NCBI GenBank assembly: GCA_020072965.1 | Contig: JAIQFY010000006.1 | Span: 1 to 64,000 of the forward strand | Origin: Terriglobia bacterium | GTDB lineage: Bacteria; Acidobacteriota; Terriglobia; JAIQFV01 | Length of the DNA: 64,000 nt | Reading direction: 5' to 3' | Shown: one piece after another, positions 20,285-60,613 of the stretch | How positions within the stretch are numbered: position 1 is the first letter of the stretch | Layout: every line of letters starts with the position of its first letter | Position numbers and translations under genes: made by a program | The notes under the pieces: generated by a model | The model's input: only the letters and a program-made list of their open reading frames with translations | Told to the model about the DNA's origin: nothing | The model's database searches: none

Positions 20285-20971
20285 ATGAGCACAAATCATT
20301 CAAACAGTACTGCTGCTTTTCATCCTGTGACACCCCGGTGGCCAGTGCGCATCCGAATGGAGCGAGGCTTTTCCATCCTCGAACTCATGATCGCTCTGTT
20401 TGTGCTGTTGTTCGGGTTCATTACGATGGCCAATCTGATTGCCACTAGTGTCGTTGTGAACCGGTCCTCCAATCATCTGACATCCATCGCCCAACTGGCA
20501 TCAGAAAAGCTGGAAGAAATACGTGCCTTGGACGCCACGGATCCGCGTGTTTACCCTGCGATCCTGTCCGGCAGCCCCGGCGCCCCGGTGACGGGAGGAT
20601 CACTCACTGGAGATGTGACCACCCCGGTCAACGTGGGGGGTGTTAACTATACCATTTCATATTTCGACGTGGTTTACGTCAACCAACGGGACGGTTCCAT
20701 CACGCGGACGGCTGGGCCAGACGATACCGGTAACTTTAGTTCCGAGACCACTTCGCTTGACGGTGCAACGACTCCCCCCGCTGCCTCCGGTAATGAGCCA
20801 ACTCAGTTGAGTTATCGGCGGCGGTGGACCATTGAGAGCAATACCCCCATTAATGGGGCGACTCAGATCACGGTGGAGGTCGCCGTCAAGACGAACAAGT
20901 TGTCGGACCCCGATCCCCCGGCGACACTGAATAATTTTAGGCAAGTGATCCGAATGCGAACTATCCACTAG
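20285..20971 (+). CDS. pilV: Type IV pilus minor pilin PilV-like, copy 2
   Basis: ...RMERG|FSILELMIALFVLLFGFITMANLIATSVVVNRSSN. It is a paralog of 14811..15467. Confidence 0.7.
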   Translation: MSTNHSNSTAAFHPVTPRWPVRIRMERGFSILELMIALFVLLFGFITMANLIATSVVVNRSSNHLTSIAQLASEKLEEIRALDATDPRVYPAILSGSPGAPVTGGSLTGDVTTPVNVGGVNYTISYFDVVYVNQRDGSITRTAGPDDTGNFSSETTSLDGATTPPAASGNEPTQLSYRRRWTIESNTPINGATQITVEVAVKTNKLSDPDPPATLNNFRQVIRMRTIH

Positions 20972-44825: not shown

Positions 44826-46658
44826 TCATGATCGTCCCGTTGGGGCGGCCCGGCTCTCCTCGTAAAGACGGCTGATCTCACGGGAGTATTTCTCAGCGAT
44901 AAATTTCCGCCGCAGCTTGAGCGTCGGAGTCAGCTCACCGGTCGCCTCGGAAAAATCAACCGGAAGGATTCGAAACTTCTTGATTTGCTCAAATCGCGCC
45001 AATTGCTGGTTGACCCGGTTCACGATGTCGGCGATGCGTTCAATGACTTGCGGGTGTTCCGTGAGTTCGCGGTATGTCCCTTCACCCACGCCCAGCCGGC
45101 GAGCCAGCGGGGGGAGTGTTTCAGCGCTCAGCGTCAGAAGGGCCGTCAGGTAGTTGCGCCGATCGCCCACTACCATGGCCTGACTGATGAGGGGGTCGTG
45201 TTTCAGAAGATTTTCGATGTTCTGAGGAGAAATATTCTTTCCGGCGGAAGTAATAATCAGCTCCTTTTTCCGGTCCAGGATGGTGAGAAAACCCTCATCA
45301 TCAATCCGCCCAATATCGCCGGTATGATACCAACCGTCGACCAGGGCTTCTTGTGTGGCCCGAGGGTCTTTGAAATACCCGAGGAAAACATTGCGGCCCC
45401 GAACTAGAATCTCCCCGTCGTCCGCGATTCTCACGTCCACTCCCGGCAACGGCTTCCCCACGGTTCCAAACTTGAAATGGTCAAAATCGCTGACGGTGGT
45501 GGGGGAGGTCGTCTCGGTGGCCCCATACGCTTCAAAGATCGGCAATCCCACAGCATGAAAGAACTCCAGGACTTCCCTCGACAGGGGAGCTCCCCCAGAG
45601 GCGAAGAAACGGAGGCGGCCTCCCAACCGCTTCCGCAGTCTTTGAAAAGCCAACCGGTCTGCCAGCCAGTGCTTGAAACGAAGGCGTGGAGGGAGGGCAA
45701 GTTTCGAGATTTGATAGGGGGTGGCTTCTCGTCCGACCTTGATCGCCCATTGGAACAGCGCCCGTTTAAACCCCGGGCTGGATGCAACCGTTGCCAGGAT
45801 TCGCTCAAGAGCTTTCTCAAAGAAACGCGGGACTCCGGTGACCACTGTCGGGGCCAATTCTGCCAGGTTTTCCGGGACCGTCTCCATCCGTTCCGCATAG
45901 CCGACCTGTGCCCCGAGGTAGACTGGGAGATACAGACTGCCGAGCCGTTCCAAGGCATGAGCCAGGGGGAGGAATGAGAAGAATACATCCCGGTCAGAAA
46001 TCATGTTGAGGTTGGACAGGGTCTCACATACAAACATCAGGTTATCGTGGGCAAGCATGACGCCTTTGGGAGGCCCCGTGGTGCCCGACGTGTAAATGAT
46101 GATCGCGAGCTGCTCCCGGTGCAGCCTGCTGAAGGAGGGGTCCAGATTCACCGGGTGTGCAACCTCGAGCCGCTCTCCTTCCCGGAGGAAATCATCCCAC
46201 AGGATAAGGAAATCGTCTCCGCCGCTCACCCCGGTCGCATCAATGATGACAGCTTTTTCGAGAGATGGAGCCTGGGTACGTATCTCTTTGATTTTTTCAA
46301 GCTGTCTCCGATTTTCTACGACCACCAGCTTGGCCCCGGAATGGCTGAGGATGTGCGCCGTGTCTTTCGGGACGTTGGTGGCATAAATTGAAACTGAGAT
46401 GGCTCCCAAGGTCAGGATAGCCAGATCAACCATCGCCCACTCGGGTCGATTGTTGGAAAGAATAGCGATGACCTCGCCTTCCCGCACCCCCTGATTCGTG
46501 AGGGCTGCCGCGAGATGACGGACCGATCGGCCAAACTCACCCCAGGTGATGTCGATGTAGCGACCGCCGCGCTTCACCCGCAGCGCAGTCTGCTCCGGCC
46601 GGGTGCGCACGTGTTTCCAGAAGGAATGGACAATGGTCGCTTCCGAGGGCATTGGCAA
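44826..46658 (-). CDS. Long-chain-fatty-acid--CoA ligase (AMP-dependent synthetase, FadD-like)
   Basis: AMP-binding motif IIYTSGTTGPPKGVMLAH, plus the downstream adenylation motifs. Confidence 0.9.
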   Translation of the reverse strand: MPMPSEATIVHSFWKHVRTRPEQTALRVKRGGRYIDITWGEFGRSVRHLAAALTNQGVREGEVIAILSNNRPEWAMVDLAILTLGAISVSIYATNVPKDTAHILSHSGAKLVVVENRRQLEKIKEIRTQAPSLEKAVIIDATGVSGGDDFLILWDDFLREGERLEVAHPVNLDPSFSRLHREQLAIIIYTSGTTGPPKGVMLAHDNLMFVCETLSNLNMISDRDVFFSFLPLAHALERLGSLYLPVYLGAQVGYAERMETVPENLAELAPTVVTGVPRFFEKALERILATVASSPGFKRALFQWAIKVGREATPYQISKLALPPRLRFKHWLADRLAFQRLRKRLGGRLRFFASGGAPLSREVLEFFHAVGLPIFEAYGATETTSPTTVSDFDHFKFGTVGKPLPGVDVRIADDGEILVRGRNVFLGYFKDPRATQEALVDGWYHTGDIGRIDDEGFLTILDRKKELIITSAGKNISPQNIENLLKHDPLISQAMVVGDRRNYLTALLTLSAETLPPLARRLGVGEGTYRELTEHPQVIERIADIVNRVNQQLARFEQIKKFRILPVDFSEATGELTPTLKLRRKFIAEKYSREISRLYEESRAAPTGRS

Positions 46659-46704
46659 TACTCAGTTTCGTTGGGTGATAGGAGCTGGATCGAGCAGGAA
46701 GTAT

Positions 46705-46930
46705 ATCAGAAAATCAGCGTTCAAAGTTCATAGTCCAAAGTTCAAAATCAACAGTCCAAAGTCTGAAACCCAGTTCCCAGTTCCCAGTTCAAAGTTGAAA
46801 GTCTAGAATTACACGCTGTGTTCATTTCCGGCCTCCGACTTCTGACCTCCGACTTCCGACTTCTGTCTTCCGGTTCTTTCCTCTGAGAACTGGCAACTGA
46901 GAACTGTCTTCTGGCAACTGCTCTCCTCAA
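46705..46930. repeat. Low-complexity, short-tandem-repeat-rich element A (blocks of TCAAAGTTCA, CAGTTCCC x3, CCGACTTC x4, GAGAACTGGCAACTG x2) in a divergent intergenic region
   Basis: It is an inverted, diverged copy of element B at 56008-56414, with the same block order on the opposite strand. Confidence 0.6.
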
Positions 46931-47036
46931 AAACCCTTTGTGATTTAACACATCCACCGAGTACAATCCCTGCAGCGTCTTCCAGGTTTCGTCCAGAACA
47001 GATCTAAATGATGAAGTGAGAATCCGAGAGGAGCCC

Positions 47037-47423
47037 ATGCCGATCAGCAAACAACTTACGGTGGTACTAGAAAACAAGCCGGGCGCGCTGGCAGAGCTGT
47101 GCACGGAACTCTCTAAGCTTGCGGTCAATATCACAGCGATCATGGCCCCTGAATCAAAATCACAGACCCCCCTCCGCATGGTGACCAGCAGCCACGAGGC
47201 CGCAAAGCGTGTGCTCACGGCCATGAATCTGAAATTCACCGAAGAGTCGGTACTTACTCTGCGGGTCGCGGATCGGCCCGGATCATTGGGACGTCTGACG
47301 CGCAAGCTGGCCGAAAATGATATCAACATCGAGTACATTTATGGGTCCATCGTTAAAGGGATGGGCAAGGCCCTCATCGTGGTGGCGGTATCCGACAACG
47401 AGCGCGCGGCGAAGTTGGTATGA
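47037..47423 (+). CDS. ACT-domain (amino-acid-binding regulatory) protein
   Basis: It has two ferredoxin-like ACT-type halves (VVLENKPGALAELCTEL...; LRVADRPGSLGRLTRKL...). GAGAGGAG SD 4 nt before the ATG at 47037. Confidence 0.65.
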   Translation: MPISKQLTVVLENKPGALAELCTELSKLAVNITAIMAPESKSQTPLRMVTSSHEAAKRVLTAMNLKFTEESVLTLRVADRPGSLGRLTRKLAENDINIEYIYGSIVKGMGKALIVVAVSDNERAAKLV

Positions 47424-47530
47424 TTTCAAACCGGCAACCCAACCACACGGTCGAGTCGCATTGGAGAGGCAATCGGTCGGGGACACCTTGAACCCAAGTC
47501 CGCTGTGCTACCCCCTGAATCCAACTTAGT

Positions 47531-48715
47531 GTGAGGAACGATTGCATGAGTTCCCTTCTTCATTGGCGCAAGGAGTTTCCCGTTCTGGAATCAACCTGCT
47601 ACATGATTTCCAATTCGCTCGGCGCCATGCCACGCAAGACCTACGATGACCTGCGCCAATATGCCGACTCATGGGCTCGGCGTGGTGTCCGCGCCTGGGA
47701 AGAAGCGTGGTGGATGCTTCCCGCTGAGGTCGGAGACCTGATGGCTCCCCTCATTGGGGCCGAGCCCGGGGAAGTGATCATGCAAACCAACGTGACGTTG
47801 ACCCAGGCCCAGATCCTTTCGTGCTTTGAGTTCAAGCCTCCCCGAAACAAGATCGTCTGTGAGGCCATGAATTTTCCCTCCGTCATGTACCTCTACCAGC
47901 AGGCCAGCAGACGGGGGGCTCGCTTCGAAACAGTTCCCAGCCAGGATGGCATCCATACCCCGACCGAGTCGATGCTTCAGGCAATCGACGAGGAAACGCT
48001 GCTGGTACCGATGTCTCATGTGATTTTCAAAAGTGCTTATGTCCAGGACGCCCGCGAGATTATCAACCACGCTCACCGGATGGGCGCGCTGGTCATCCTG
48101 GATGTGTACCAATCTGCCGGAATCATGCCGATCGACGTGAAGGCGCTCAATGTGGATGTGGTCATCGGGGGCTGCTTGAAATGGCTGTGTGGCGGACCCG
48201 GCAATGCGTTCCTTTACGTTCGGCCCGATTTGTACGAAAAGCTGGAACCCGCCCTGACCGGCTGGCTGTCGCACGAGTCTCCATTTAATTTTGAGCCGCC
48301 CCCTATCCGGCGTCGTCACGACGTCTGGCGGTTTTTGTCGGGGACTCCTCCCATTCCGGCACACTATGCGGCCAAGGCTGGCCTCGAGATTATCAATCAG
48401 ATTGGAGTGGCCGCCATCCGCGAGAATTCGATTCGGCAGACCGCCCGGCTGATTGCGCTCGCCGACGAAGCAGGTTTGAAAGTGAATTCTCCTGGGGATC
48501 CTGAACAACGCGGGGGCACGGTCTCGGTTGATCTGCCTGATGCCATGGAGGTGGCTCACGAGCTTGTGCGCCGCGACTTCCTCGTGGATTATCGTCCCGG
48601 AGCCGGCATCCGTTTGTCACCCCACTTTTACAACACGGATGACGAGATCGACGCCGTCGTGGCCGAGATCAAAAAGATTTCCAATACCCGGGTGGTTTCC
48701 TCAACGCAGGGATAA
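47531..48715 (+). CDS. kynU: Kynureninase-like class V PLP-dependent enzyme
   Basis: The N-terminal RNDC..L...FP motif, YMISNSLGAMP (cf. YLDGNSLG), GGCLKWLCGGPGNAFLYV (cf. GCTYKYLNGGPGSQAFVWV) and the size all match kynureninases. The start may instead be ATG 47546. Confidence 0.7.
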   Translation: MRNDCMSSLLHWRKEFPVLESTCYMISNSLGAMPRKTYDDLRQYADSWARRGVRAWEEAWWMLPAEVGDLMAPLIGAEPGEVIMQTNVTLTQAQILSCFEFKPPRNKIVCEAMNFPSVMYLYQQASRRGARFETVPSQDGIHTPTESMLQAIDEETLLVPMSHVIFKSAYVQDAREIINHAHRMGALVILDVYQSAGIMPIDVKALNVDVVIGGCLKWLCGGPGNAFLYVRPDLYEKLEPALTGWLSHESPFNFEPPPIRRRHDVWRFLSGTPPIPAHYAAKAGLEIINQIGVAAIRENSIRQTARLIALADEAGLKVNSPGDPEQRGGTVSVDLPDAMEVAHELVRRDFLVDYRPGAGIRLSPHFYNTDDEIDAVVAEIKKISNTRVVSSTQG

Positions 48716-48920
48716 TCAGGGTCGACGGCCCGACTTACAGCTGGATGCGATTTCACCTGGACGCTGCAGCTCAGCGAATCCGGCATCGAGGGAGAAAATG
48801 TTCTGCTCAGGTTGAATCACCGCTCCGCAGGGGTGGGCAAAGACCAGGATCACCAGTGCATCGCAGGGTTCACAAAGCCTCCACCGATTTTCCGACTTCT
48901 TCTCCAACAAGGACAACAAC

Positions 48921-50927
48921 ATGCTAAAGAGGATCATTGCAGCTGCGTTACTTCTGGTCGCCTCACCGCACTACACACAGACGTTTCGCCCGGAAATTCG
49001 TGGGTCCCATGGAATCGTCGGGTCCGGTCGATACTATTCCGTGGCGGCAGGAATCCGGATGCTCGAACTCGGAGGCAATGCCATTGATGCGGGAGTGGCG
49101 ACGGTGTTTGCCTCTTCGGTGGTCGAGGTGTCCCACTTCGGCTTTGGGGGGGAAGTTCCCCTCATGATTTATGACGCGCGGTCGAAGAAAGTCATCGTGA
49201 TTAACGGGCAGGGAACAGCGCCTCGGGACCTGAAACCGGAGTTCTTCAGGAAGATGACGGATGATGAAAAGAAGGCCGCCCATTTCAAGAACAGCGCCGG
49301 TGTGGAGCTTCCACTGGCCGACATCGGGCAGGGAAAGATCCCTGGCAACGGGCCACTCGCCGCCACCCTGCCCGCCGTAATGGATTCCCTCGCACTCGCC
49401 CTGGAAAACTACGGCACCATGTCGCTCGAACAGGTGATGCAGCCGGCCATCGAACTGGCCGACGGATTTCCTTTTGTCGAGGGGTTGGAACACTACTGGG
49501 AACAAAACCGAAAATTCTGCGAAAAGTACCCGGATACGATGGCCGCCTATTTTCCGGGCGGGAAAACGCCGGAGGTGGGGGAAACGTTCCGTCAGCCTAA
49601 CCTGGCAAAGACCTTCCGGGCGCTGGTGGCCGCTGAACGCGCGGAGTTTCGCCGCTCGCACGACCGCCGCAAAGCCATTGAAGCGGGGCGCGATACGTTT
49701 TACAAGGGGGACATTGCGCGCCGCATTGCGGACGCTGATTTGAGGGCCGGCGGGGTCATCACGTTCGAAGATCTTGCGCAGTACCATGGGAAGATCGGGG
49801 AGCCCACGACGACCACTTATCGCGGATACCAAATCTACAAGGCGGGTTTTTGGGATCAGGGGCCGGTCCTGTTGATGGCCTTGAACATTTTAGAAGGGTT
49901 CGACCTAGCGGATATGGGGCTTGACTCCACCGAGTTTATCCATACCGTGACCGAGGCCATCAAACTGGCCTACGACGACCGCAACGCCTATTTCGGTGAT
50001 CCCGACTTTGTGAAGGTTCCTGCGAAAGGCCTACTATCGAAAGAGTATGCCACCACTCGCCGCGCGCTCATCAATTCGCACAAGGCCGCACTCGACCACC
50101 GCCCCGGCGACCCCTGGAAGTATGAGGGAGTTTTGGAGGGTGGAGCCGCCGCGGCGGAGTCAGCCCGCGTTGCCGATGCCAAATCGGGCCGACCGGTTCA
50201 TTTCCCCCACGTCCAGGGTGATCCCGCGGTCGGTTTTGTTTCCGGTGACACGACCTGTGTGAATGCCGTTGACAAGGACGGGAACCTGTTTTCAGCCTCT
50301 CCCTCTTCAGGCTGGATTCTGGGGGGTGCATTCATCGCCGGCGACACCGGGGTGCCGCTTTCCAATCGTGCCCAGGTTTTTTCGTTGGACGAGAAATCCC
50401 CGAATTATCTGGTTGGAGGAAAGCATCCACGGACCACCCTGACGCCGACCATCGTGTTGGTCCCTGAATCAAGTCCGCCCCCGAATTCTGAGCAGCAGGC
50501 GGCACGGGATGGCAATACAAATTCCACGGGCCCCTCGGGAGAGACCCCGTCTGCAAGGAAGTTGAAGCCATACCTTGCGCTCTCGACCCCCGGCGGGGAT
50601 AGCCAGGATCAACAGGTGCTGAATGTCCTGCTTAATCTGATCGATTTCAAAATGCCCATTCAGCAAGCCATCGAAGCACCCAGGCTGAACACAGATCATC
50701 CCTTCAGTTCGTTTGATAATCATCAGGACAAGCCGGGCGATCTGAGCCTGGAAAGCCGGATCGCCCCGGGCGTCATCGACGCCCTCCGGGCCAAGGGCCA
50801 CCAGGTGACCGTCCTGGGACCGTATGGCATGTACACGGGCATGACGGCCGTGGGGGTGGATCCAAAATTCGGGACTTTGTTCGGAGGAGCCGATGTGCGG
50901 CGCGAGCGTTACCTCATGGGGTGGTAG
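48921..50927 (+). CDS. ggt: Gamma-glutamyltransferase family protein (secreted), with a ~40-aa low-complexity insertion
   Basis: Signal peptide, GGT small/large-subunit conservation, autoprocessing-site region GDTTCVNAVD, and the inserted SSPPPNSEQQAARDGNTNSTGPSGETPS. Confidence 0.85.
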   Translation: MLKRIIAAALLLVASPHYTQTFRPEIRGSHGIVGSGRYYSVAAGIRMLELGGNAIDAGVATVFASSVVEVSHFGFGGEVPLMIYDARSKKVIVINGQGTAPRDLKPEFFRKMTDDEKKAAHFKNSAGVELPLADIGQGKIPGNGPLAATLPAVMDSLALALENYGTMSLEQVMQPAIELADGFPFVEGLEHYWEQNRKFCEKYPDTMAAYFPGGKTPEVGETFRQPNLAKTFRALVAAERAEFRRSHDRRKAIEAGRDTFYKGDIARRIADADLRAGGVITFEDLAQYHGKIGEPTTTTYRGYQIYKAGFWDQGPVLLMALNILEGFDLADMGLDSTEFIHTVTEAIKLAYDDRNAYFGDPDFVKVPAKGLLSKEYATTRRALINSHKAALDHRPGDPWKYEGVLEGGAAAAESARVADAKSGRPVHFPHVQGDPAVGFVSGDTTCVNAVDKDGNLFSASPSSGWILGGAFIAGDTGVPLSNRAQVFSLDEKSPNYLVGGKHPRTTLTPTIVLVPESSPPPNSEQQAARDGNTNSTGPSGETPSARKLKPYLALSTPGGDSQDQQVLNVLLNLIDFKMPIQQAIEAPRLNTDHPFSSFDNHQDKPGDLSLESRIAPGVIDALRAKGHQVTVLGPYGMYTGMTAVGVDPKFGTLFGGADVRRERYLMGW

Positions 50928-51070
50928 AGGACCGATCCTCCCAGGTCGTGGGTTCCGGTCGATCTCATTAATTCATGTGGGGATTGTGAGGGCGACTTCG
51001 GGATAAGCGCTTCACCGTAATTGGATCAATACCCAGGCAGGAAAATAGGCATCTAAAGGAGCAGAGTGGG

Positions 51071-51532
51071 ATGGTTCAAACGTTGTTGTGGGTTCACGTT
51101 CTCGGCGCGGCCCTTGTCTTGGGCGGTGTTGTGGCGGGATGGGTTTGCATGAACCAGGCGGCGATTGTGGGAGATGCGAAGGTAACCCTGTTTGCGTTGA
51201 AGGCGATGCGCCGTTTGAACACATGGACGCTGCACTTGGGGTCCGCCCTGGTTTTGATGAGTGGATTCTGGATGGCACTCGCAGGGCCAGTCCCTCTGAA
51301 GCTCAGTGCCAATCCATGGTTGTTGTATTCGGTCATTCTATATTTTGTGATTCTGTTCCTGGTGACAGGGGCGCAATCACCCATTAGCAAAAAAGTAATG
51401 GCATTGGCAGAAAAGGATGGGCCTGATTTTGGGGTGATTTTCTCAAGAATTGTTGGTCACTGGAAAATGCTTTCAGGAATCAACGTCTTCCTGCTGGCAG
51501 TGATTCTATTTCTCATGGTGTTTAAGCCTTAG
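51071..51532 (+). CDS. DUF2269-like small integral membrane protein (4 TM)
   Basis: Four hydrophobic helices; AGGAG upstream of the ATG. Confidence 0.55.
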   Translation: MVQTLLWVHVLGAALVLGGVVAGWVCMNQAAIVGDAKVTLFALKAMRRLNTWTLHLGSALVLMSGFWMALAGPVPLKLSANPWLLYSVILYFVILFLVTGAQSPISKKVMALAEKDGPDFGVIFSRIVGHWKMLSGINVFLLAVILFLMVFKP

Positions 51533-51553
51533 GAGCGAGCGTCATTTTTGAGT

Positions 51554-51574
51554 GGGGCAGACGTCCCGTCTGCC
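51554..51574. repeat. REP-like palindrome family 3, copy 1 of 3 (GGGGCAGACG-TCC-CGTCTGCC)
   Basis: 9-bp inverted repeat. It is followed by TGCTTATT and could double as the terminator of the DUF2269 gene. Confidence 0.55.
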
Positions 51575-51595
51575 TGCTTATTCCAAGCTACACAA

Positions 51596-51617
51596 GGACA
51601 GACGAGATGTCTGCCTC
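51596..51617. repeat. REP-like palindrome family 3, copy 2 (GGACAGACG-AGAT-GTCTGCC)
   Basis: Degenerate unit, 21 nt after copy 1. Confidence 0.5.
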
Positions 51618-51634
51618 CCCTTCTGGTTTGAACA

Positions 51635-51656
51635 GGGCAGACGAGACGTCTGCCCC
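51635..51656. repeat. REP-like palindrome family 3, copy 3 (GGGCAGACG-AGA-CGTCTGCCCC)
   Basis: Near-identical to the 11534-11556 copy. It lies 18-30 nt upstream of the AsmA-like gene start. Confidence 0.55.
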
Positions 51657-51673
51657 ACCACGGCGCTCAGCGA

Positions 51674-54600
51674 TTGAGATGGAAGATGGCCGAAACAGAA
51701 CAGAAAAAGACGGTATCCAGTGCTAAAGCGAAAGCCGTGGATTTCTGGCATCATCGCTCGAGGGCGACACGCCTGGAGCTTTTGCTGCTGGTGGTGGTGT
51801 TTCTGTTCTTTGAATTCATCGTCCCGACGATTCTCGGTAGCCAGTATTCCAAGCGTTTCTTCGAAAAACATCTCAGCGACGCGCTTCGGTATCCCGTGAC
51901 CTTCGATCGCATTAATACGAACCTCTTCGGCCGCCCGGCGTTGTGGGTGGGAGGTATGAACATTCAGGATCACGAGGGACATCCTTTCTTCAGGGGCGAC
52001 GAGGTGAAAATGGAGTTGAGCCCCTGGGCGCTCCTTCGCGGTCATATTGTGCTGAATCTCATCCGGCTGGTGGACGGCGACTTTCTGGCCGCCCGCCTCC
52101 CCGATGGGCGATGGAATATCGCCGACCTCGTGTCAGCGGGAAACGATCCCGATCGAGCCATCGATCTCGAAAAGACCGCCGTTGAGATGAGGAACATGGT
52201 CGCTACCATCCAGGACCAAGCCTTGCCCCTCCCCCTGGTACAACATATCCGCCTGCGAGATTTTTCCATCTCCACCCTGGACATTCGACGCAAGACGCGC
52301 TTGCAGATAGACGCCATCGATGACGACCATCCCGAATCCAGTCTCGAGGTCAAGGGCAATTTTGCTGTGTTCGTCCCGGACGACCTCAGCACACTCAGTG
52401 GAAATCTCGATCTGACCCTGAAACATTTCAACCTCCAGATTTTGAATTCCTATTTGGGGTCAACCAAGTCTCAGGTGAAGGGGTTCGAGGGCTTCTATGA
52501 TATTCAATTAAAGATGGAAGGGCAGGGATCTTCTCCCATCTCCATCATTCTGCGCTCAAAAGCCGACCAGTTGAGAGTGGCCATCGACGCAACCTCATCC
52601 GGAGCCTCCGGTTCCGCAGGGTCCACTCATCCCAGTCCAGAGGCCTTGAACCGCGGCAGAAAATGGATCGACTTCAAAACCGCTTCACTGGAGGGCCTGG
52701 TGGGCCTGTCCACCGATGAAATTCGGTTCACTAAACTCAATGGAGAGCTGGCGTCCACTCATTTCGAGATGGACGGCCGAGTTTACAACCTGCACACCAG
52801 GATGCCTCGTTTGGAGACCTCCGTTTCAACGAGTGAGTTCGAAATCGCTGATCCCCTTCGATCGCTGATTGATGCGGAACTGGATGAGTTCGGAAGACGG
52901 ATTTTCGCGGGACTGACCGGGACCGCTCGGGCACAACTGATTTGGACCGGAAGGCTCGATGACCCGACATTCGACTGGCGGGCTGAACTGAAGAAAAGTC
53001 AATATCGAAATGATCAGTATGAATTCCAACTGAAGGACATTGTTTCCGTGATGCGGTCCAACGGCAAGAAGACTCAGATCGACTCCCTGGGAGCCCAATT
53101 CTTCAACTCCCCTTTGCAAGTCTCCGGCTGGGTCGATGAGAAGGACCGGGTGAATATGAAGCTTTCTCTCCCGGCGGTCCCACTCGGTCAGATTTATCCA
53201 TTCATGAAACGGCTTCGGAGCCAGGGTTACTTGGCTTCCATGCCATGGTTGGATCGGGTCCCCAGCGTAAGTGGTCGAGGCCACGCGGAGTTACTCGTAA
53301 CCGGAGACCTGGATCACCCGGAGGCGGCTGGAACCCTGTCCATAGCCGGGACACGGATCCAGCTCGCAGGACTCTCTTTCCCGATCGAGAACGTGGAGGG
53401 TCGGGTAGTGCTGAAGGACAGGGTCGTTTGCGCGCATCAGTTTTATCACAGGGCCGTTTGCGCGGACCCGATTTCCGGATCTTTGGGGGATTCTCCCTTC
53501 GAGCTGGAGGCGGTACTGGATCCGAAGGAGTTCTCGCTGTTGGCCTTGCACTTCAGGTCTCCGTCTATGAATTTGCACCGATATGATGAACTAACGTCCT
53601 CGCGCTGGATCGATCGGGTGGATTTGCCAATAGTCGGGCAGATCAAGGGAGCCGACGGGGTCGCCGACATTCAGCTGGACTATCCTTCAGGCGGTGTGCG
53701 CCGTGCCGCTCCGATCTCCAGACCGGTCGCCCAAGTTTCGGGCCTGGATGGCGAAGCAGACGGCGAGGACGATCCGGTCCTTCTGAATGAATCCGGGAGA
53801 CTTCCGGAGTTTTCCCTGCAAATGCGTAATCTGCGAAATGGCGGCGCCGTGCTGTCCAACGTGGCGCTGCCACTCAAGGGCTTTTCCGGCGGGCTCATCT
53901 ACAGCGGCGATAGGCTGAGGTTTCGTCATTTGGAAGGGTCCTTGGGGGACTCTTCGTTGTCGCTGGATGGAGGGATCGAACAGCTGAATGAATTGGGGGA
54001 ACGATGGGATCTCAAAGCACAAATGAGCGCCGCGTTTCCGCAGATGTCCTTATTGCTCCCGGCGGCATGGAAAAACCAGATTACCGCGGAAGGGCAGTTC
54101 CCCGTCACCATTTCATTCCTAGGCGAAAGGAACGATCAGCTCGAGGTTCGCGCCGAGGTCAATTTTCCAGAATCAGCCCAACTGAGACTTGCCCGTTCGT
54201 TCGAAAAGCCCGTGGGCACCTCAAGCCACCTTTCTCTTGACGGCGTATGGAAAAACCAAGCCTTTGACATCAATGAAGGAAATCTCACGCTGGGCGAACT
54301 TCCCTTGGCGGTCCATGGCACGCTGGATTTTTCGGAGACTCTTGGGGTGGAGATGGCCCTGACCGCCGCGATGGACCAGTTCGCTCCCGTGACGACGCTC
54401 CTGAAGTTCGTCAAGCTCCCGGCAACCTCCCTGAGTGTTCGTGGCGGATCGGCTTCCGGCTCCGTAACGCTCTCGGGGAACCCGAGTGATCCCGAGGTGA
54501 GTTCGACCTTGAGACTTGCAGACGTATCGGTAGACGGGATGCCCTGGGGACCAACGAGTCTGACGGGAGATCTGACCGTCGGAACCGGGGGCGTTTCCGC

Positions 54601-55621
54601 CAGGGATTTTCTGGCCATTGTGAATAAACTCCCCATGCGCGTGACAGGCACTCTGAATCTAAATGGACCACAGCCCGCTCTGAGCGCTGAGGTGGACAAC
54701 CTGAATCTCGATGCCCTGGTGACAACTCTGGCCCGCATGTCACCGGGGGCAGAGGCGCCTCCCTCCGGGGCCGCCGGCAAAATGATGACCATCGATGTAA
54801 GAGCTTCGAGCGGAGTGTTTTTTCATCAGCCCATCAAGAAATTCGTGGCGCATGGAACCTGGGACGCCGCAGTGATTCAGCTGGACCCGATGGAGGTGAC
54901 CGCGGGCGGCAGCACGAGCAACGCCGCTATCACTTGGAAATCGCGAACGAATGAGGAGCATTTGAAGTTTGAATCCCGCGATGTGCCCATGGGAGCGTTC
55001 CTCGACGAGATACTTGATATCCAGATCCCCGTGGAAGGAAAACTCACGGTCCAGGGAGACTTGACGTCTCGTAACACCGATCCCCAGAATCTATTGGCGT
55101 CCCTGGTGGGCAATGCGCATTTTGATGCCTCTCAAGGGACCCTGCACTATGCCGGTTTGCCCCAGCGCCTTTTGTCGATGGCAACCCTCGTGCATGAGGG
55201 GTTGTTCGGTTTTAACCTGGGGCGCATTTTTCAAACCATCGATCCTCCCCAGTTCAAGCAGTTCAAATCCTGGTCCGCTGATGTGACCTTTTCTCCGGAC
55301 GGTTCTGCACGACTGGAGCGAAGTGATTTCAAATCGGAGTTGTTCGACCTGACCGCCACCGGGACCGTTAATACCAAAACAGAGGATATGGTCATCAACG
55401 TCAAAGGATCTTTGCCTGAAATCCCTCATAGCTCGAATTTCCTCGCCCAAATCTTCGGGCAGATCTCCATACGCGGTATATACCGGAATGTCGCTGATTT
55501 TACACTCTTGATTACGGGCCAGCGCAAGAAGATCAAGCCGCGCCGCTATAACTTTGAATTTAAGTTGACGGGGAATCTCGAGGGGATTAAGTCGATTGAA
55601 GATTTTCGTTTTGTCAAATGA
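51674..55621 (+). CDS. AsmA/TamB-like giant envelope protein (N-terminal TM anchor + extended beta-rich region; outer-membrane biogenesis / lipid transport family)
   Basis: 1315 aa with an N-terminal anchor LELLLLVVVFLFFEFIVPTILG and AsmA-N-like RYPVTFDRINTNLFGRPALWVGGMNIQ. Long repetitive beta-rich body and a conserved C-terminal segment. The start is probably ATG 51686. Confidence 0.7.
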   Translation: MRWKMAETEQKKTVSSAKAKAVDFWHHRSRATRLELLLLVVVFLFFEFIVPTILGSQYSKRFFEKHLSDALRYPVTFDRINTNLFGRPALWVGGMNIQDHEGHPFFRGDEVKMELSPWALLRGHIVLNLIRLVDGDFLAARLPDGRWNIADLVSAGNDPDRAIDLEKTAVEMRNMVATIQDQALPLPLVQHIRLRDFSISTLDIRRKTRLQIDAIDDDHPESSLEVKGNFAVFVPDDLSTLSGNLDLTLKHFNLQILNSYLGSTKSQVKGFEGFYDIQLKMEGQGSSPISIILRSKADQLRVAIDATSSGASGSAGSTHPSPEALNRGRKWIDFKTASLEGLVGLSTDEIRFTKLNGELASTHFEMDGRVYNLHTRMPRLETSVSTSEFEIADPLRSLIDAELDEFGRRIFAGLTGTARAQLIWTGRLDDPTFDWRAELKKSQYRNDQYEFQLKDIVSVMRSNGKKTQIDSLGAQFFNSPLQVSGWVDEKDRVNMKLSLPAVPLGQIYPFMKRLRSQGYLASMPWLDRVPSVSGRGHAELLVTGDLDHPEAAGTLSIAGTRIQLAGLSFPIENVEGRVVLKDRVVCAHQFYHRAVCADPISGSLGDSPFELEAVLDPKEFSLLALHFRSPSMNLHRYDELTSSRWIDRVDLPIVGQIKGADGVADIQLDYPSGGVRRAAPISRPVAQVSGLDGEADGEDDPVLLNESGRLPEFSLQMRNLRNGGAVLSNVALPLKGFSGGLIYSGDRLRFRHLEGSLGDSSLSLDGGIEQLNELGERWDLKAQMSAAFPQMSLLLPAAWKNQITAEGQFPVTISFLGERNDQLEVRAEVNFPESAQLRLARSFEKPVGTSSHLSLDGVWKNQAFDINEGNLTLGELPLAVHGTLDFSETLGVEMALTAAMDQFAPVTTLLKFVKLPATSLSVRGGSASGSVTLSGNPSDPEVSSTLRLADVSVDGMPWGPTSLTGDLTVGTGGVSARDFLAIVNKLPMRVTGTLNLNGPQPALSAEVDNLNLDALVTTLARMSPGAEAPPSGAAGKMMTIDVRASSGVFFHQPIKKFVAHGTWDAAVIQLDPMEVTAGGSTSNAAITWKSRTNEEHLKFESRDVPMGAFLDEILDIQIPVEGKLTVQGDLTSRNTDPQNLLASLVGNAHFDASQGTLHYAGLPQRLLSMATLVHEGLFGFNLGRIFQTIDPPQFKQFKSWSADVTFSPDGSARLERSDFKSELFDLTATGTVNTKTEDMVINVKGSLPEIPHSSNFLAQIFGQISIRGIYRNVADFTLLITGQRKKIKPRRYNFEFKLTGNLEGIKSIEDFRFVK

Positions 55622-55705
55622 GCGATCTGAAACGAAGCAGGGAGATTTGGGATGTCACAAAGCCAAGGCGTGATTTGACATCCAAGTTAGAAGCAGGAGG
55701 AGAGC

Positions 55706-56005
55706 ATGAAACGATTCAGGCAAGGAAGTTGGCAGAAGGGTTGTACGCTGGTCATATTTGCAGCGGTTCTGTTGAGCACCGTGTACTACTTCGCGGCCAG
55801 CGAGGATGATTTGGCGAGGCTGAAGCCCGGAATGACCAAAGATGCTGTCATCGAGACCATGGGGAAGCCGGATTCCAGGGGCGAGAAGAAAGGAGAGGAT
55901 CCTTGTGGCTGGTTCATCTACAAGAATGTCGGGCACTACAAGTATGTTCAGATCTGGTTTGATTGCCAGGACAAACTGGTGGGCATCGACAAGGCGTCGA
56001 AATAA
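55706..56005 (+). CDS. BamE/SmpA-OmlA-like small outer-membrane lipoprotein
   Basis: AGGAGG SD 5 nt upstream. Signal or lipobox-like N-terminus. LKPGMTKDAVIETMGKPD is the SmpA/OmlA fold signature. Confidence 0.6.
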   Translation: MKRFRQGSWQKGCTLVIFAAVLLSTVYYFAASEDDLARLKPGMTKDAVIETMGKPDSRGEKKGEDPCGWFIYKNVGHYKYVQIWFDCQDKLVGIDKASK

Positions 56006-56007
56006 GG

Positions 56008-56414
56008 CCAGTTCTCAGTTGTCAGTTCTCAGTTGCCAGTGAAGACAACCGGAAGCCAGAGGCCGGATGCAGGAGGCCGGAGGTCAGAAGTCAGAAAAGC
56101 AGTTGCCAGTTGCCGGTTCTCAGTTCTCCGAGAAGAGCAGGGAAGACTGGAAGCAATATACCGGGGGTCACCTTTTGCAATTCATAATGAAGGGCGCTAT
56201 GAATTGTGGATCCTCAGACTTTGAACTTTGAACCTTAAACTTTGAACTGGGTCTTAGGCTTTGGACTTGCCTTTTTGAACTTGGAACTTTGAACTGGTTC
56301 TTTTGGACCTTGGACTTGGGACGTTGGACTTGCCTTTTTGAACTTGGAACTTCGAACTGGTTCTTTTGGACCTTGGACTTGGGACGTTGGACTTGCCTTT
56401 TTGAACTTGGAACT
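56008..56414. repeat. Low-complexity, short-tandem-repeat-rich element B (CAGTTCTCAGTTGCCAG blocks, GGCCGGAGGTCAGAAGTC blocks, ACTTTGAAC blocks, and 2.4 tandem copies of a 63-nt unit at 56261-56414); inverted relative of element A
   Basis: Unit TTGGACTTGCCTTTTTGAACTTGGAACTTYGAACTGGTTCTTTTGGACCTTGGACTTGGGACG repeated. The block order mirrors the reverse complement of 46705-46930. Confidence 0.6.
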
Positions 56415-56431
56415 AAATCGGGTTGCTTTCC

Positions 56432-57955
56432 ATGCGAAGAATGATCGTGGCAGGAGGCGGGCTCGCGGGATGCGAGGCTGCCTGGCAAATTGCCACACAG
56501 CTGGACGTGCGTGGCGCCGCATTGGCTGCGGAGGTGGAGTTGTGGGAAATGCGCCCCCGCGTTAGAACTCCCGCGCATCGAACTGATCGGCTGGGGGAGT
56601 TGGTGTGCAGCAATTCCCTCAAGAGCGATGCCGAGTTCTCTGCACCGTGGCTGCTGAAGGAAGAATTGCGGCAGCTGAATTCGCTGTTGATTGCGGTGGC
56701 CGAGGAGACTCGTGTCCCGAGCGGCCATGCGCTGTCGGTGGACCGCGATAAATTTTCGGCCCTTCTGACGGAGCGAATCTCAAATCATCCGCGGATCCGC
56801 ATTCGGCGCGATGAGTTCGTCGAGCTGCCTGAGGATGAGGATTCGATTGTGATTGTGGCCACCGGGCCTCTCACATCGGAGGCCCTCTCCGAAAATATTC
56901 GACAGGTGACGGGTCAGGACCATCTCTATTTCTTCGACGCCATCAGCCCGATTGTCGAGGCCGAAACCATTGACCTCTCGATCGCGTTTAAGGCCTCCCG
57001 TTACGGCAAGGGGGGAGATGATTATGTGAATTGTCCCATGTCCAAGGGAGAATACGACGCCTTCTATGATGCGCTCGTCGGGGCGCAGTGTGTTCCGACC
57101 CATGAGTTCGAAAGAGAAATCCTGACCGGCGTTTCCAGCCGGGAACTGGGCGGAGAAAAATTTCCTTTGAATCTGGCTGCCACAGAGGTTGAAGTGAAGG
57201 CGATGGCCACGACCTCGGCACTGTTGAGCGAGGCGGTAATAGAAGCGGAGGCATTGGCTGCTGAAAAAATGCTGTCCAGAGGGACTCCTTACTTTGAAGG
57301 GTGCCTGCCGATTGAAGAGTTGGCCCGGCGCGGGCGCGACACGCTGCGGTTTGGCCCCATGAAGCCGGTGGGGCTGGTGGACCCTCGAACCGGCCGCATG
57401 CCGTGGGCCTGCGTCCAGCTGCGCCAGGAGACCCTGATGGCCGACAGCTACAACCTCGTGGGCTTTCAAAACCACCTGCGCTTCCCCGAACAGGAACGTA
57501 TCTTCCGCATGATCCCCGGACTTGCCCAAGCGGAGTTCATCCGCTTCGGGCAGATGCACCGGAACACCTACCTGAACTCGCCCCGCCTCCTCGTCGAGAC
57601 GCTTCAAATGCGAACCCGGCCCAATGTTTTCTTTGCCGGCCAGCTGGTGGGGGTTGAAGGATACGTCGAGTCCATCATGACGGGTTTGGTCGCCGGACGG
57701 AACGCCGTGCGGTTGGCCCTTGGTCAAAATCCCAGCGCGCCTCCCTCCGGATCCGCATGCGGCGCATTGTTGCATTACATCACCCACGCCCCTCCTCACA
57801 ATTTCCAGCCCATGAACATCGTCTTCAGCCTCCTTCCCCCGGTTGAAATCCGGACGCCAAAGGGAGCAAAGATCCCGAAGGCCGAGCGCCACCAACACCA
57901 GTGCGAGATCGCGCTCCAAGAGTTCGAACAATGGAAGCAGAATCTGGAAAATTAA
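56432..57955 (+). CDS. trmFO: Methylenetetrahydrofolate--tRNA-(uracil54-C5)-methyltransferase TrmFO (Gid), with a ~60-aa insertion
   Basis: MRRMIVAGGGLAGCEAAWQ...EMRP...TPAHRTD..LGELVCSNSL...FFAGQLVGVEGYVES...NFQPMN, with near-collinear similarity to B. subtilis TrmFO. An extra segment (LTGVSSRELGGEKF...AAEKMLSRGTPY) sits between the EFEREI and FEGCLPIEE regions. Confidence 0.85.
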   Translation: MRRMIVAGGGLAGCEAAWQIATQLDVRGAALAAEVELWEMRPRVRTPAHRTDRLGELVCSNSLKSDAEFSAPWLLKEELRQLNSLLIAVAEETRVPSGHALSVDRDKFSALLTERISNHPRIRIRRDEFVELPEDEDSIVIVATGPLTSEALSENIRQVTGQDHLYFFDAISPIVEAETIDLSIAFKASRYGKGGDDYVNCPMSKGEYDAFYDALVGAQCVPTHEFEREILTGVSSRELGGEKFPLNLAATEVEVKAMATTSALLSEAVIEAEALAAEKMLSRGTPYFEGCLPIEELARRGRDTLRFGPMKPVGLVDPRTGRMPWACVQLRQETLMADSYNLVGFQNHLRFPEQERIFRMIPGLAQAEFIRFGQMHRNTYLNSPRLLVETLQMRTRPNVFFAGQLVGVEGYVESIMTGLVAGRNAVRLALGQNPSAPPSGSACGALLHYITHAPPHNFQPMNIVFSLLPPVEIRTPKGAKIPKAERHQHQCEIALQEFEQWKQNLEN

Positions 57956-59536: not shown

Positions 59537-60613
59537 GTGGCGTCGAGTGTCAAGTCCCGTGAAGTCAATCTCCCAGACCCGCCACAGATCATATCGCCGC
59601 TAATCCCCGCGTATCCCTGTTATAATCTGCTCAGCATGGATGAGTGGATCCAAAAGTTTCTGGACTCCCTGCGGTTTGAACGCAACGCTTCGCCGCATAC
59701 GGTGCGCAATTATGCCAGCGACTTGGCGCAGTTTCGAGATTTCCTGCTGCAGCAGGAAATATCCACAAAATCGACGGCGGGACCCAGCCCGAACCCGGAC
59801 GTGGAAAAATCCGGCGGACCCGATGTGAAGTCCATCGATAATCTTCGCATCAGAGAATTCCTCGGCACCCTCTACCAGCGTGAAAACCAGAAAAGTTCAA
59901 TCGCCCGTAAGACTGCGGCGATCCGTTCCTTCTTCCGTTTTGTGGAGCGGGAGGGTGGCATTGAGAAGAATCCGGCCCTGTTGGTGGCCGGCCCCAAGAT
60001 CCCCCGCAAACTGCCGCAAGTGATGACGGCGGAAACGGTGGGGAATTTTTTGAATGCCCTCGATGCACAGAGCGCGGAGGTTGGTCCGGACCCCCACTTT
60101 CTTCTCAAGCGCGACGTCGCCATGTTCGAGCTGTTGTATGCCGCCGGGCTGCGCGTCAGTGAATTGGTGGGACTCAATTTTGAGGACATCAATTTTGACG
60201 AGCGGATGTTGCGAGTCCGGGGGAAAGGCAAAAAGGAACGGATGGTTCCGTTTGGAACGAAGGCAGAACAAGCCATTGCCGCTTACCTGGAACGGCGGGA
60301 TCAGAAGTTTGGCTCCCACCAGGTGGTGGGGAATCGCGCCTCGGTGTTCGTGAATTTTCGCGGGGGGCGTCTCACGGCCCGCTCTGTGGCCCGGCTTCTC
60401 GATCGCTACATCCGCCAATTCGATCGAAACCTGAAACTCTCGCCGCATGGTCTCCGCCATGCCTTTGCCTCGCACCTGCTGTACGAGGGCGCGGATCTGC
60501 GGGCCATCCAGGAAATGCTCGGGCATGAGTCCCTGTCGACAACACAGAAGTACACGCATACGTCGATTAAGCAGCTTCTCGAGGTCTACGACAAGGCCCA
60601 CCCCAAGGCCTAA
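59537..60613 (+). CDS. Tyrosine site-specific recombinase, XerC/XerD family
   Basis: Core-binding domain (HTVRNYASDLAQF), catalytic R...HxxR...Y (GLRVSEL; HGLRHAFASHLL; LGHESLSTTQKYTH). The likely start is MDEWIQKFL (~59637). It has an N-terminal extension and an insertion (STAGPSPNPDVEKSGGPDV). Confidence 0.85.
   Translation: MASSVKSREVNLPDPPQIISPLIPAYPCYNLLSMDEWIQKFLDSLRFERNASPHTVRNYASDLAQFRDFLLQQEISTKSTAGPSPNPDVEKSGGPDVKSIDNLRIREFLGTLYQRENQKSSIARKTAAIRSFFRFVEREGGIEKNPALLVAGPKIPRKLPQVMTAETVGNFLNALDAQSAEVGPDPHFLLKRDVAMFELLYAAGLRVSELVGLNFEDINFDERMLRVRGKGKKERMVPFGTKAEQAIAAYLERRDQKFGSHQVVGNRASVFVNFRGGRLTARSVARLLDRYIRQFDRNLKLSPHGLRHAFASHLLYEGADLRAIQEMLGHESLSTTQKYTHTSIKQLLEVYDKAHPKA

Follow-up and report, generated by a model that had tools for sequence, protein, structure and literature searches.

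The window analyzed here is a stretch of 64,000 nt (64 kb) from a Terriglobia bacterium (Acidobacteriota; contig JAIQFY010000006.1, positions 1 to 64,000), in which two low-complexity elements, A and B, bracket a six-gene segment of about 9 kb (Table 1). On balance, the two elements are probably paralogous composite arrays of heptanucleotides of the STRR and TAACTGA kind, which turn over by slippage and repair and are co-polar with the genes downstream of them, rather than the arms of an inverton. On this reading the apparent inverted-repeat bracket is a pair of heptamer arrays oriented with the genes they precede, not a switch. The repeats are of a known kind, in a host phylum without a description in the literature searched, where no paper on such arrays in Acidobacteria or Planctomycetes was found.

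Tandem Repeats Finder (TRF) detects arrays of periods 7, 14 and 21 at 46719-46906 and 56007-56414, and autocorrelation at period 7 across all 64 kb is positive at A and B only. The units of A and B include CCCAGTT (3.1 copies, 100% matches), TTCCGACCTCCGAC (3.4 copies), CAGTTCT (3.7 copies) and ACTTTGA (4.4 copies). The 2.4 copies of a 63-nt unit that the initial annotation had described in B are recovered at 56261-56414, with 98% matches. When one mismatch or none is allowed, CAGTTSYCAGTT has 12 matches against 0.95 expected, 11 of them within A or B, and ACTTTGRACTT has 19 against 1.5 expected, 17 of them within A or B. Self-alignment of the window yields two collinear inverted matches between the elements. 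One is 91 nt long (46825-46915 with 56007-56097, 71% complementary) and the other 80 nt (46725-46804 with 56216-56295, 78% complementary). The TRF arrays, the inverted matches and the autocorrelation bear out the earlier description of A and B as two inverted, diverged copies on opposite strands, built from a common ordered set of motif blocks. These motifs fall into three heptamer classes, which A and B have in one shared order.

Both elements consist of successive blocks in which one or two 7-nt units are repeated in tandem. On the minus strand, in the direction of the fadD-like gene, A has the order CAGTTSY, GARGTC, centre and RACTTTG/AACTGGG; the individual units are CAGTTGC/CAGTTCT, then AGAAGTC/GGAAGTC/GGAGGTC, then a centre of 28 nt, then GACTTTC/AACTTTG/AACTGGG/GACTTTG. 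Read on the plus strand toward trmFO, B has the order CAGTTSY, GARGCC/GARGTC, CAGTTSY, centre and ACTTTGR, and its final 154 nt are organized as the 63-nt higher-order repeat. The 7-nt units of the different blocks have an AGT/ACT core in common. In both elements the sense strand has the AGT core in the distal blocks and its complement, the ACT core, in the proximal ones, so that each element has two arms of opposite polarity. The centre of B contains a hairpin with a 9-bp stem (CAATTCATA...TATGAATTG, 56178-56206). This hairpin lies within an insertion of about 70 nt that is particular to the window species; the sister-species sequence has a gap there when aligned. An open reading frame (ORF) of 54 aa is annotated inside B in the public assembly (~56067-56231; 3362-3526 in contig L001); it is probably spurious, because the repeat blocks it covers lack conservation in the sister species.

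Both elements are intergenic. A lies between the starts of the fadD-like gene (46652) and the ACT-domain gene (47037), and B lies between the stop codon of the BamE-like gene (56005) and the start of trmFO (56432). The polarity of A toward the fadD-like gene on the minus strand is the same as that of B toward trmFO on the plus strand, and A and B are mutually inverted because the genes they precede are on opposite strands. In each case ACT-core units on the sense strand are found a short way upstream of a start codon that has no Shine-Dalgarno-like sequence, at about 66 nt from the ATG of the fadD-like gene for A and at 17 nt from that of trmFO for B. Head-to-tail 7-nt units, intergenic placement, mixed units with CAGT or ACTG cores, and length polymorphism in multiples of the unit are the features of heptanucleotide arrays, and both A and B have them.

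Within the window the likeness of A to B is modest. The best high-identity core is 24 nt long (23/24, 96%), exact inverted matches reach 18 nt at most (the one that starts at 46889), and an unrelated metagenome array (L236) scores above B against A (77.9 versus 64.4 bits). A closer likeness is found in a sister species (TrmFO 83% identical) represented by assemblies GCA_041490505.1 (L132), GCA_041494885.1 (L134) and GCA_044447805.1 (L127). L132 and L134 have both A and B at the same sites, with the same block order and the same orientation, and orthologous copies of B are present in all three. The A and B of L132 share an 89-nt core with 85/89 identical positions (95.5%) and a longest exact match of 46 nt; those of L134 share a 76-nt core with 73/76 identical positions and a longest exact match of 35 nt. 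This core includes a non-repetitive centre of about 45 nt, AGGGCGAAGGTCA.GAAGTGACTGAGAAGCACCTTTCGATTTG (also written AGGGCGAAGGTCA.GAAGTGACTGAGAAGCACCTTTCG). It is the sister-species copies, and not the likeness within the window, that identify A and B as true paralogues. Both copies have persisted at both sites since before the two species split.

The centre shared by the sister-species copies has a weak likeness to the centre of B in the window and none to that of A. The centre of A in the sister species is a near-copy of the centre of B there, and the simplest reading of this pattern of identities is that gene conversion from B to A took place in the sister lineage, between inverted copies.

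Array size changes in 7-nt steps, with indels of 7, 49 and 63 nt between strains and species. L132 and L134 differ by 49 nt (7 x 7) in A, within the arm next to the fadD-like gene, and by 7 nt in B. Contigs of the window species itself, recognized by identical proteins, are found in metagenome assemblies of soil type (ENA ERZ27248002 and ERZ27247940; Logan SRR15677233 and SRR15677226). Element A is 100% identical in two ENA contigs. In the ENA contig L001, B is shorter by exactly one 63-nt unit, although collapse of the repeat is possible in this short-read assembly. Short-read contigs of both the window species and the sister species break inside the arrays. The initial annotation had offered three readings: an invertible segment, slippage-prone intergenic repeats and the remnant of a composite element. 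The 63-, 49- and 7-nt indels and the contig breaks inside the arrays make slippage-prone intergenic repeats the best-fitting of the three. Arrays that break short-read assemblies and vary in copy number also matter for reading the contig ends of metagenome-assembled genomes.

The identities of TrmFO homologues drop from 88-70% straight to 56%, and this gap between 70% and 56% indicates a small and distinct clade. In its member closest to the window species (L126, TrmFO 88%), the gap between the BamE-like gene and trmFO has no array and contains instead a perfect hairpin with a 12-bp stem, GTAGGGGCGCATAGCTATGCGCCCCTAC (L126 1420-1460). The same gap is also array-free in L128 (TrmFO 71%), holds an inverted pair of AGTTCCA/AAATCCA arrays in L129 (70%), and holds a degenerate version of that pair in L131 (73%). 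Element A is absent from L128, L129 and L131, in which the ACT-domain gene adjoins a thiolase or CoA-transferase gene and not a fadD-like gene. The distribution of arrays across these four relatives suggests that the arrays at the B site are old and have been repeatedly lost or rebuilt, and that A is of later date and goes with the clade that has a fadD-like gene beside the ACT-domain gene. The locus forms a comparative series, with arrays at two sites in two species, related arrays at one site in distant relatives, and none in the closest relative. Such a series dates the persistence of the arrays and, to judge from the identities, reveals gene conversion between copies 9 kb apart.

Two further repeats were observed in these relatives. 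The sister species has an extra hairpin-like sequence, CCGGCTTGAAGAGATTTGAACTTGAAAAGATCTCTGGC, between the BamE stop codon and B (L132 9720-9750, L134 9727-9757), which is not in the window. In a relative with a TrmFO identity of 70%, an array of TTCGGAT/TGCGGAT heptamers lies directly past the stop codon of an xerC-like gene (L129 14053-14094, L130 4159-4191), and a short-read contig ends in this array.

Arrays of this kind occur widely. One genome per species in a 596-Gb collection was scanned with the pattern CAGTTSYCAGTTSYCAGTT, which gave at least 120 loci. By our own estimate about 70 chance matches are expected in the whole collection, which argues that the listed loci are real arrays. 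By record title these include 52 loci from Acidobacteriota, 17 from Planctomycetota, 15 from Cyanobacteria and 13 from Bacteroidota; the others among those listed are 3 from Verrucomicrobiota, 2 from Nitrospirota and 18 from elsewhere. Extended period-7 tracts are present in 112 of the 120 listed loci, and many of the 8-kb loci have 2-8 separate tracts. The commonest units in the listed loci are CAGTTGT and CAGTTCT, together with other CAGT-core heptamers. Genomes of Nostoc, Calothrix, Tolypothrix and Dolichospermum are among the matches listed for the CAGTTSY pattern.

The metagenome pattern CAGTTSYCAG-N15-45-GTCRGARGTC was too permissive, with many chance matches by estimate, and only about 25 of its 122 matches hold real period-7 arrays. 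These real arrays consist of a GTCAGnn-type run, 10-90 nt, and a complementary nnCTGAC-type run (L213, L236, L156, L196, L143), a layout like that of A and B. The AGTYCAA and GARGTC classes seldom accompany CAGTTSY in the 120 listed genome loci, and no downstream ACTTTGR block was found in the metagenome matches. On these grounds the three-block composite was rejected as a recurrent module elsewhere. Viral contigs in IMG/VR carry CAGTT-core arrays at at least 120 loci (L256-L375; for example L258, L296, L300 and L306). A contig may hold several arrays, in many cases arranged as inverted pairs with a spacing of about 30 nt that abut ATG or CAT, and the examined contigs have 61-69% G+C. Arrays of the STRR and TAACTGA kind have so far been described mainly in cyanobacteria, Beggiatoaceae and a few Bacteroidetes. 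An old problem is widened by the finding here that Acidobacteriota and Planctomycetota commonly have CAGTT-core arrays and that viral contigs carry them too.

In the reading favored here, the arrays would arise, turn over and become homogenized by replication slippage together with ectopic templated repair. They would be dispensable, because the array at the B site is missing from the closest relative, L126. Any function would be a cis action on the fadD-like operon and on trmFO, both of which lack a Shine-Dalgarno sequence, and the arrays could serve as upstream or leader spacers, as has been proposed for the TAACTGA repeats and the Nostoc heptamers. A and B would not be arms of a programmed invertible segment.

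Several points weigh against this reading. The part of it that concerns cis regulation is pure inference, and its Shine-Dalgarno observation has n = 2. A dispersed family that extends across the genome, as in cyanobacteria, would be conjecture for this organism: the 64-kb window has only two period-7 arrays, and the sister species has no further ones in 21 kb of sequence. Slippage leaves unexplained the heptamer core common to unrelated phyla and viral contigs, the frequent layout of two arms of opposite polarity, and the higher-order periods of 14, 21 and 63 nt (63 = 3 x 21, about six helical turns). The persistence of block order across species could reflect selection, which the favored reading takes to be weak. 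RNA folding compared with shuffled sequences gives z-scores of -0.89 and -1.19 for A and +1.84 for B. The polarity of arrays toward gene starts is 77 forward versus 61 reverse (138 arrays in the 120 listed genome loci; p = 0.2), as assessed with crude ORF calls that missed genes of 99 aa and may have placed arrays inside spurious ORFs; a global polarity rule was rejected as not significant. The initial annotation had named ordinary membership in a high-copy intergenic family without orientation bias as a case against its own finding. This applies by half: the class is very widespread and the crude test shows no such bias, but the window has only the two arrays and these are mutual paralogues.

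A stable RNA structure or riboswitch was rejected on the unremarkable z-scores and the lack of Rfam matches, of which the window has none at the gathering threshold and the interval 46400-56700 none even at E <= 1. Consensus scans of the arrays for promoters and terminators returned nothing above the shuffled expectation; the sole match within an array is TTCCCA-17-TAGAAT at 46781-46809, in A.

Among the alternatives, the likeliest, though still unlikely, makes the arrays functional leaders. The ACT-core strand (GAACTTT/GGACTTG/AACTGGG) would form part of the transcribed 5' leader of the fadD-like operon and of that of trmFO and be bound there in a 7-nt register, with copy number setting the strength. 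A single-strand-binding protein with a cold-shock domain or an S1-type OB fold would replace Shine-Dalgarno initiation or tune translation. The common polarity of A and B toward the downstream gene speaks for this, as does the Shine-Dalgarno-like sequence, which is missing in only two of 10 local genes, namely the fadD-like gene and trmFO, and present in the 8 neighbouring genes. The leader of B is less stable than shuffled sequences and so unstructured, four genomes conserve the last ~45 nt ahead of the trmFO ATG, and precedents have been proposed (PMC4679880; bioRxiv 10.1101/2022.06.06.494920). These points are set against a quite different, array-free trmFO leader in the nearest relative, L126, and against the lack of global polarity bias across the 138 arrays. 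Leader function also gives the distal AGT-core blocks no role, and it would call for a binding protein that is so far hypothetical in all organisms.

A broader proposal, which we hold to be decidedly doubtful, is that CAGT/ACTG heptamer arrays, which are found here, in four or more other phyla and in viral contigs and often have two opposed arms, form one cross-phylum class of cis-element, recognized on single-stranded RNA or DNA by a conserved protein in a 7-nt register. Expression of the beta-oxidation operon would then be co-ordinated with that of trmFO through the pair A and B, with array length as a heritable tuning knob. If true, this would supply a function for the STRR-type repeats, which have been without one since 1990.

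It is very unlikely that A and B are structural or insulator elements comparable to REP/BIME, whose opposite arms would fold, as RNA or single-stranded DNA, into long and imperfect hairpins and would terminate or stabilize transcripts or bind nucleoid proteins. B does begin 2 nt past the BamE stop codon, clear inverted pairs with 10-90 nt between them make up many of the arrays elsewhere (L213, L236, L129, L258), and the CAGUUSY and AACUGGG blocks pair with each other when the A minus strand is in its minimum-free-energy fold. However, the folding energy is not better than that of shuffled sequences for A and is worse for B, and the consensus scan finds no terminator-like site in A or B. In addition, the genes on either side of A diverge and need no terminator between them.

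The initial annotation had raised the possibility that recombination between A and B inverts the intervening segment and swaps promoters. In its full form, homologous recombination between the two elements would flip the 9-kb six-gene segment and change the upstream region that reads into it; we consider this most improbable. The elements are inverted and truly homologous, and the perfect A/B identity of 35-46 nt in the sister species, together with the gene conversion there, implies that the two sites interact by recombination. A gene for an XerC/D-like tyrosine recombinase also lies 3.1 kb downstream of B. Efficient exchange by RecA usually needs about 25-30 nt of identity. The sister species has matches of that length (46 and 35 nt), but the exact match in the window, at 18 nt, falls below it. 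All assemblies of the window species that span a junction place the ACT-domain gene beside the fadD-like gene and the BamE-like gene beside trmFO. Look-ups with the ACT, BamE, TrmFO and fadD-like proteins found no alternative junction, a weak negative in that the look-up merges places with mostly identical neighbours. The inversion test rests on consensus assemblies, and a rare inverted subpopulation is compatible with them.

The segment also has a single orientation in six related genomes. Its order and orientation relative to trmFO are unchanged in L128, L129, L131, L132 and L134, including the relatives that lack A. Inversion would not swap the promoter of the ACT operon, because the conserved promoter-like site lies between A and the ACT-domain gene and travels with the segment. 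The recombinase gene adjoins trmFO in array-free relatives as well (L126, L128, L131) and looks like a housekeeping XerC/D, and no dedicated site-specific recombinase is found by Pfam among the six segment genes or the flanking genes.

Equally remote is a mobile origin, in which A and B would be insertions of a non-autonomous, MITE-like element or the ends of a six-gene composite transposon. The sister-species copies have a non-repetitive centre sequence in common, the element ends are roughly inverse-complementary (CAGTTC...GAACT), and CAGTT-core arrays are frequent in viral contigs too, but there is no transposase in or beside the segment (Pfam), no target-site duplication is visible at A or B, the six genes are syntenic with trmFO in relatives without A, no third copy beyond generic array similarity occurs in the 64 kb or in about 370 fetched loci, and the copies differ by gain and loss of blocks, unlike discrete insertions. 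The suggestion of a composite-element remnant in the initial annotation falls with the missing transposase and the synteny.

Table 1. Positions of elements A and B, their blocks and the neighbouring genes in the 64-kb window.
Feature	Position	Strand	Basis or remark
Element A, whole	46714..46920	-	Repeat scans, period-7 autocorrelation, minus-strand reading
A, arm nearest the fadD-like gene: AGTTCAA/AGTCCAA heptamers, then CCCAGTT x3.1, then AAAGTTG/AAAGTC	46719..46803	+	TRF
A, centre, short, non-repetitive	46804..46831	.	Sequence reading; not conserved with the sister species
A, CCTCCGA/CTTCTGA block (minus strand GGAGGTC/AGAAGTC), periods 7, 14, 21	46832..46875	+	TRF; best-conserved block between species
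A, CTGAGAA/CTGGCAA block (minus strand CAGTTCT/CAGTTGC), holds the 18-nt exact match	46883..46920	+	TRF, repeat search
Element B, whole	56007..56414	+	Repeat scans, period-7 autocorrelation
B, CAGTTCT/CAGTTGT/CAGTTGC x4.6, begins 2 nt past the BamE stop codon	56007..56041	+	TRF
B, GGAAGCC/AGAGGCC/GGAGGTC/AGAAGTC block	56050..56097	+	Sequence; sister-species version longer and more regular
B, second CAGTTGC/CGGTTCT block	56100..56128	+	TRF; not in A nor in sister-species B
B, centre, 87 nt, non-repetitive	56129..56215	+	Sequence reading
B, ACTTTGA/ACCTTAA heptamer block	56216..56260	+	TRF
B, 63-nt (9 x 7) higher-order unit x2.4, TTGGACT/TTGAACT-type heptamers	56261..56414	+	TRF
fadD-like AMP-binding gene	44826..46652	-	Pfam; start as in the L004 gene call
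Promoter-like site of the ACT-domain operon, TTGTGA-18-TACAAT	46938..46967	+	Consensus scan; inside the bracketed segment
Six-gene segment: ACT-domain, aminotransferase-V/kynureninase-like, GGT, DUF2269, AsmA/TamB-like, BamE-like	47037..56005	+	Pfam
trmFO, 507 aa	56432..57955	+	Pfam GIDA
XerC/D-like tyrosine recombinase gene	59537-60613		3.1 kb downstream of B

The Pfam matches at the locus are AMP-binding, ACT, Aminotran_5/KYNU_C, GGT, DUF2269, AsmA/YhdP/TamB, BamE and GIDA (TrmFO), and they agree with the gene calls originally made for the segment and its flanks. The fadD-like gene heads a minus-strand beta-oxidation operon with genes for a thiolase, a CoA-transferase III, a FadB-like protein and an acyl-CoA dehydrogenase. 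TrmFO of this clade is 489-507 aa long, compared with about 445 aa in most homologues, and GIDA is matched in two stretches. In the region 46925-46970 a near-palindrome, TGTGATTTAACACA, overlaps the promoter-like site of the ACT operon. The 51 nt around that site are identical to the sister species at 49/51 positions, whereas the remaining spacer has diverged, and the site is probably an operator plus promoter.

Other repeats were noted away from A and B. The gap between the DUF2269 and AsmA-like genes (51547-51660) contains three copies of a palindromic unit, GGCAGACG-N3-5-CGTCTGCC, which form hairpins like those of CGTC-tagged REP sequences (compare PMC3733652). In the relative L128, the product of a Y1_Tnp (PF01797) gene at 20321-20776 is a possible RAYT-type partner of such units. 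At the other end of the window, one open frame of 866 aa without a stop codon occupies 2-2599 on the minus strand. About 710 aa with 3.x copies of a 90-aa immunoglobulin-like (Ig-like) module are followed directly by an encapsulin shell domain (Linocin_M18, residues 713-865, E = 1.7e-51). The Ig-like modules correspond to a 270-nt tandem repeat at 474-1305 with 66-69% G+C, and the fourth module is cut mid-way at the junction. This frame may reflect a true fusion, a deletion or a misjoin in the assembly.

Comparison with known systems separates A and B from two of them. Like invertons, A and B are inverted homologous sequences that bracket a block of genes, but here there is no dedicated invertase, the arms are degenerate (18 nt exact), one orientation is seen, and the bracketed 9 kb are housekeeping genes with their own internal promoter-like site. 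Like REP and BIME sequences, the elements are intergenic, repetitive, partly palindromic and assembly-breaking. REPs, however, are discrete hairpins of 20-40 nt and not tandem arrays of 7-nt units.

The STRR sequences are closer. Mazel et al. reportedly described them in heterocystous cyanobacteria in 1990, with the units CCCCAGT (STRR1), TTGGTCA and CAACAGT (STRR3). They share with A and B tandem 7-nt units with a CAGT core, intergenic placement, blocks of mixed units, length polymorphism between strains and no assigned function. The host here is a member of the Terriglobia (Acidobacteriota), and the units are CAGTTSY, GARGTC and ACTTTGR. STRR also differ in that there are here only two sites in 64 kb, occupied by paralogous copies with conserved block order, any high genomic copy number being conjectural.

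Mrazek, Guo and Shah (2007) found heptanucleotides to be the most abundant of repeats with 5-11-nt units in most genomes, proposed slippage, and noted that units of a length not divisible by 3 give non-coding repeats, all as cited in PMC4679880. Theirs is a statistical class, which, as far as that citation goes, is silent on paired paralogous copies or a shared core. In Nostoc PCC 7120, TTTTGAA/TTCAAAA heptamers lie upstream of recF as well as of recO, and deletion of the repeats changed reporter output (bioRxiv 10.1101/2022.06.06.494920). The Nostoc arrays are short and their host is cyanobacterial, but their unit nearly equals the ACTTTGA/AGTTCAA and TTCAAAA units of A and B, and they too are found near promoters or start codons of genes with a non-canonical Shine-Dalgarno sequence.

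TAACTGA and mixed heptamer repeats were reported by MacGregor (2015) in Beggiatoaceae, Cyanobacteria and Bacteroidetes (PMC4679880). They lie directly upstream of start codons, apparently in place of Shine-Dalgarno sequences, show 7-nt indels between strains and presence or absence between close relatives, and contigs end in them (PMC4679880). Their phylogenetic distribution is very limited, and most are single-unit arrays of 2-6 copies (PMC4679880). A forward-orientation bias was found in the BOGUAY genome (Cand. Maribeggiatoa) and not in Microcystis, and CspB binds one heptamer per protein (PMC4679880). A and B differ from them as composite arrays of three classes, 200-400 nt long and with a 63-nt unit, in a phylum not mentioned in PMC4679880, and the cross-phylum sample of listed loci shows no polarity bias. 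Otherwise the likeness is detailed. In both systems a heptamer containing AACTG lies on the sense strand upstream of a start codon, in a leader without a Shine-Dalgarno sequence; indels come in increments of 7 nt; the orthologous gap of a close relative is free of arrays; and contigs end in the repeats.

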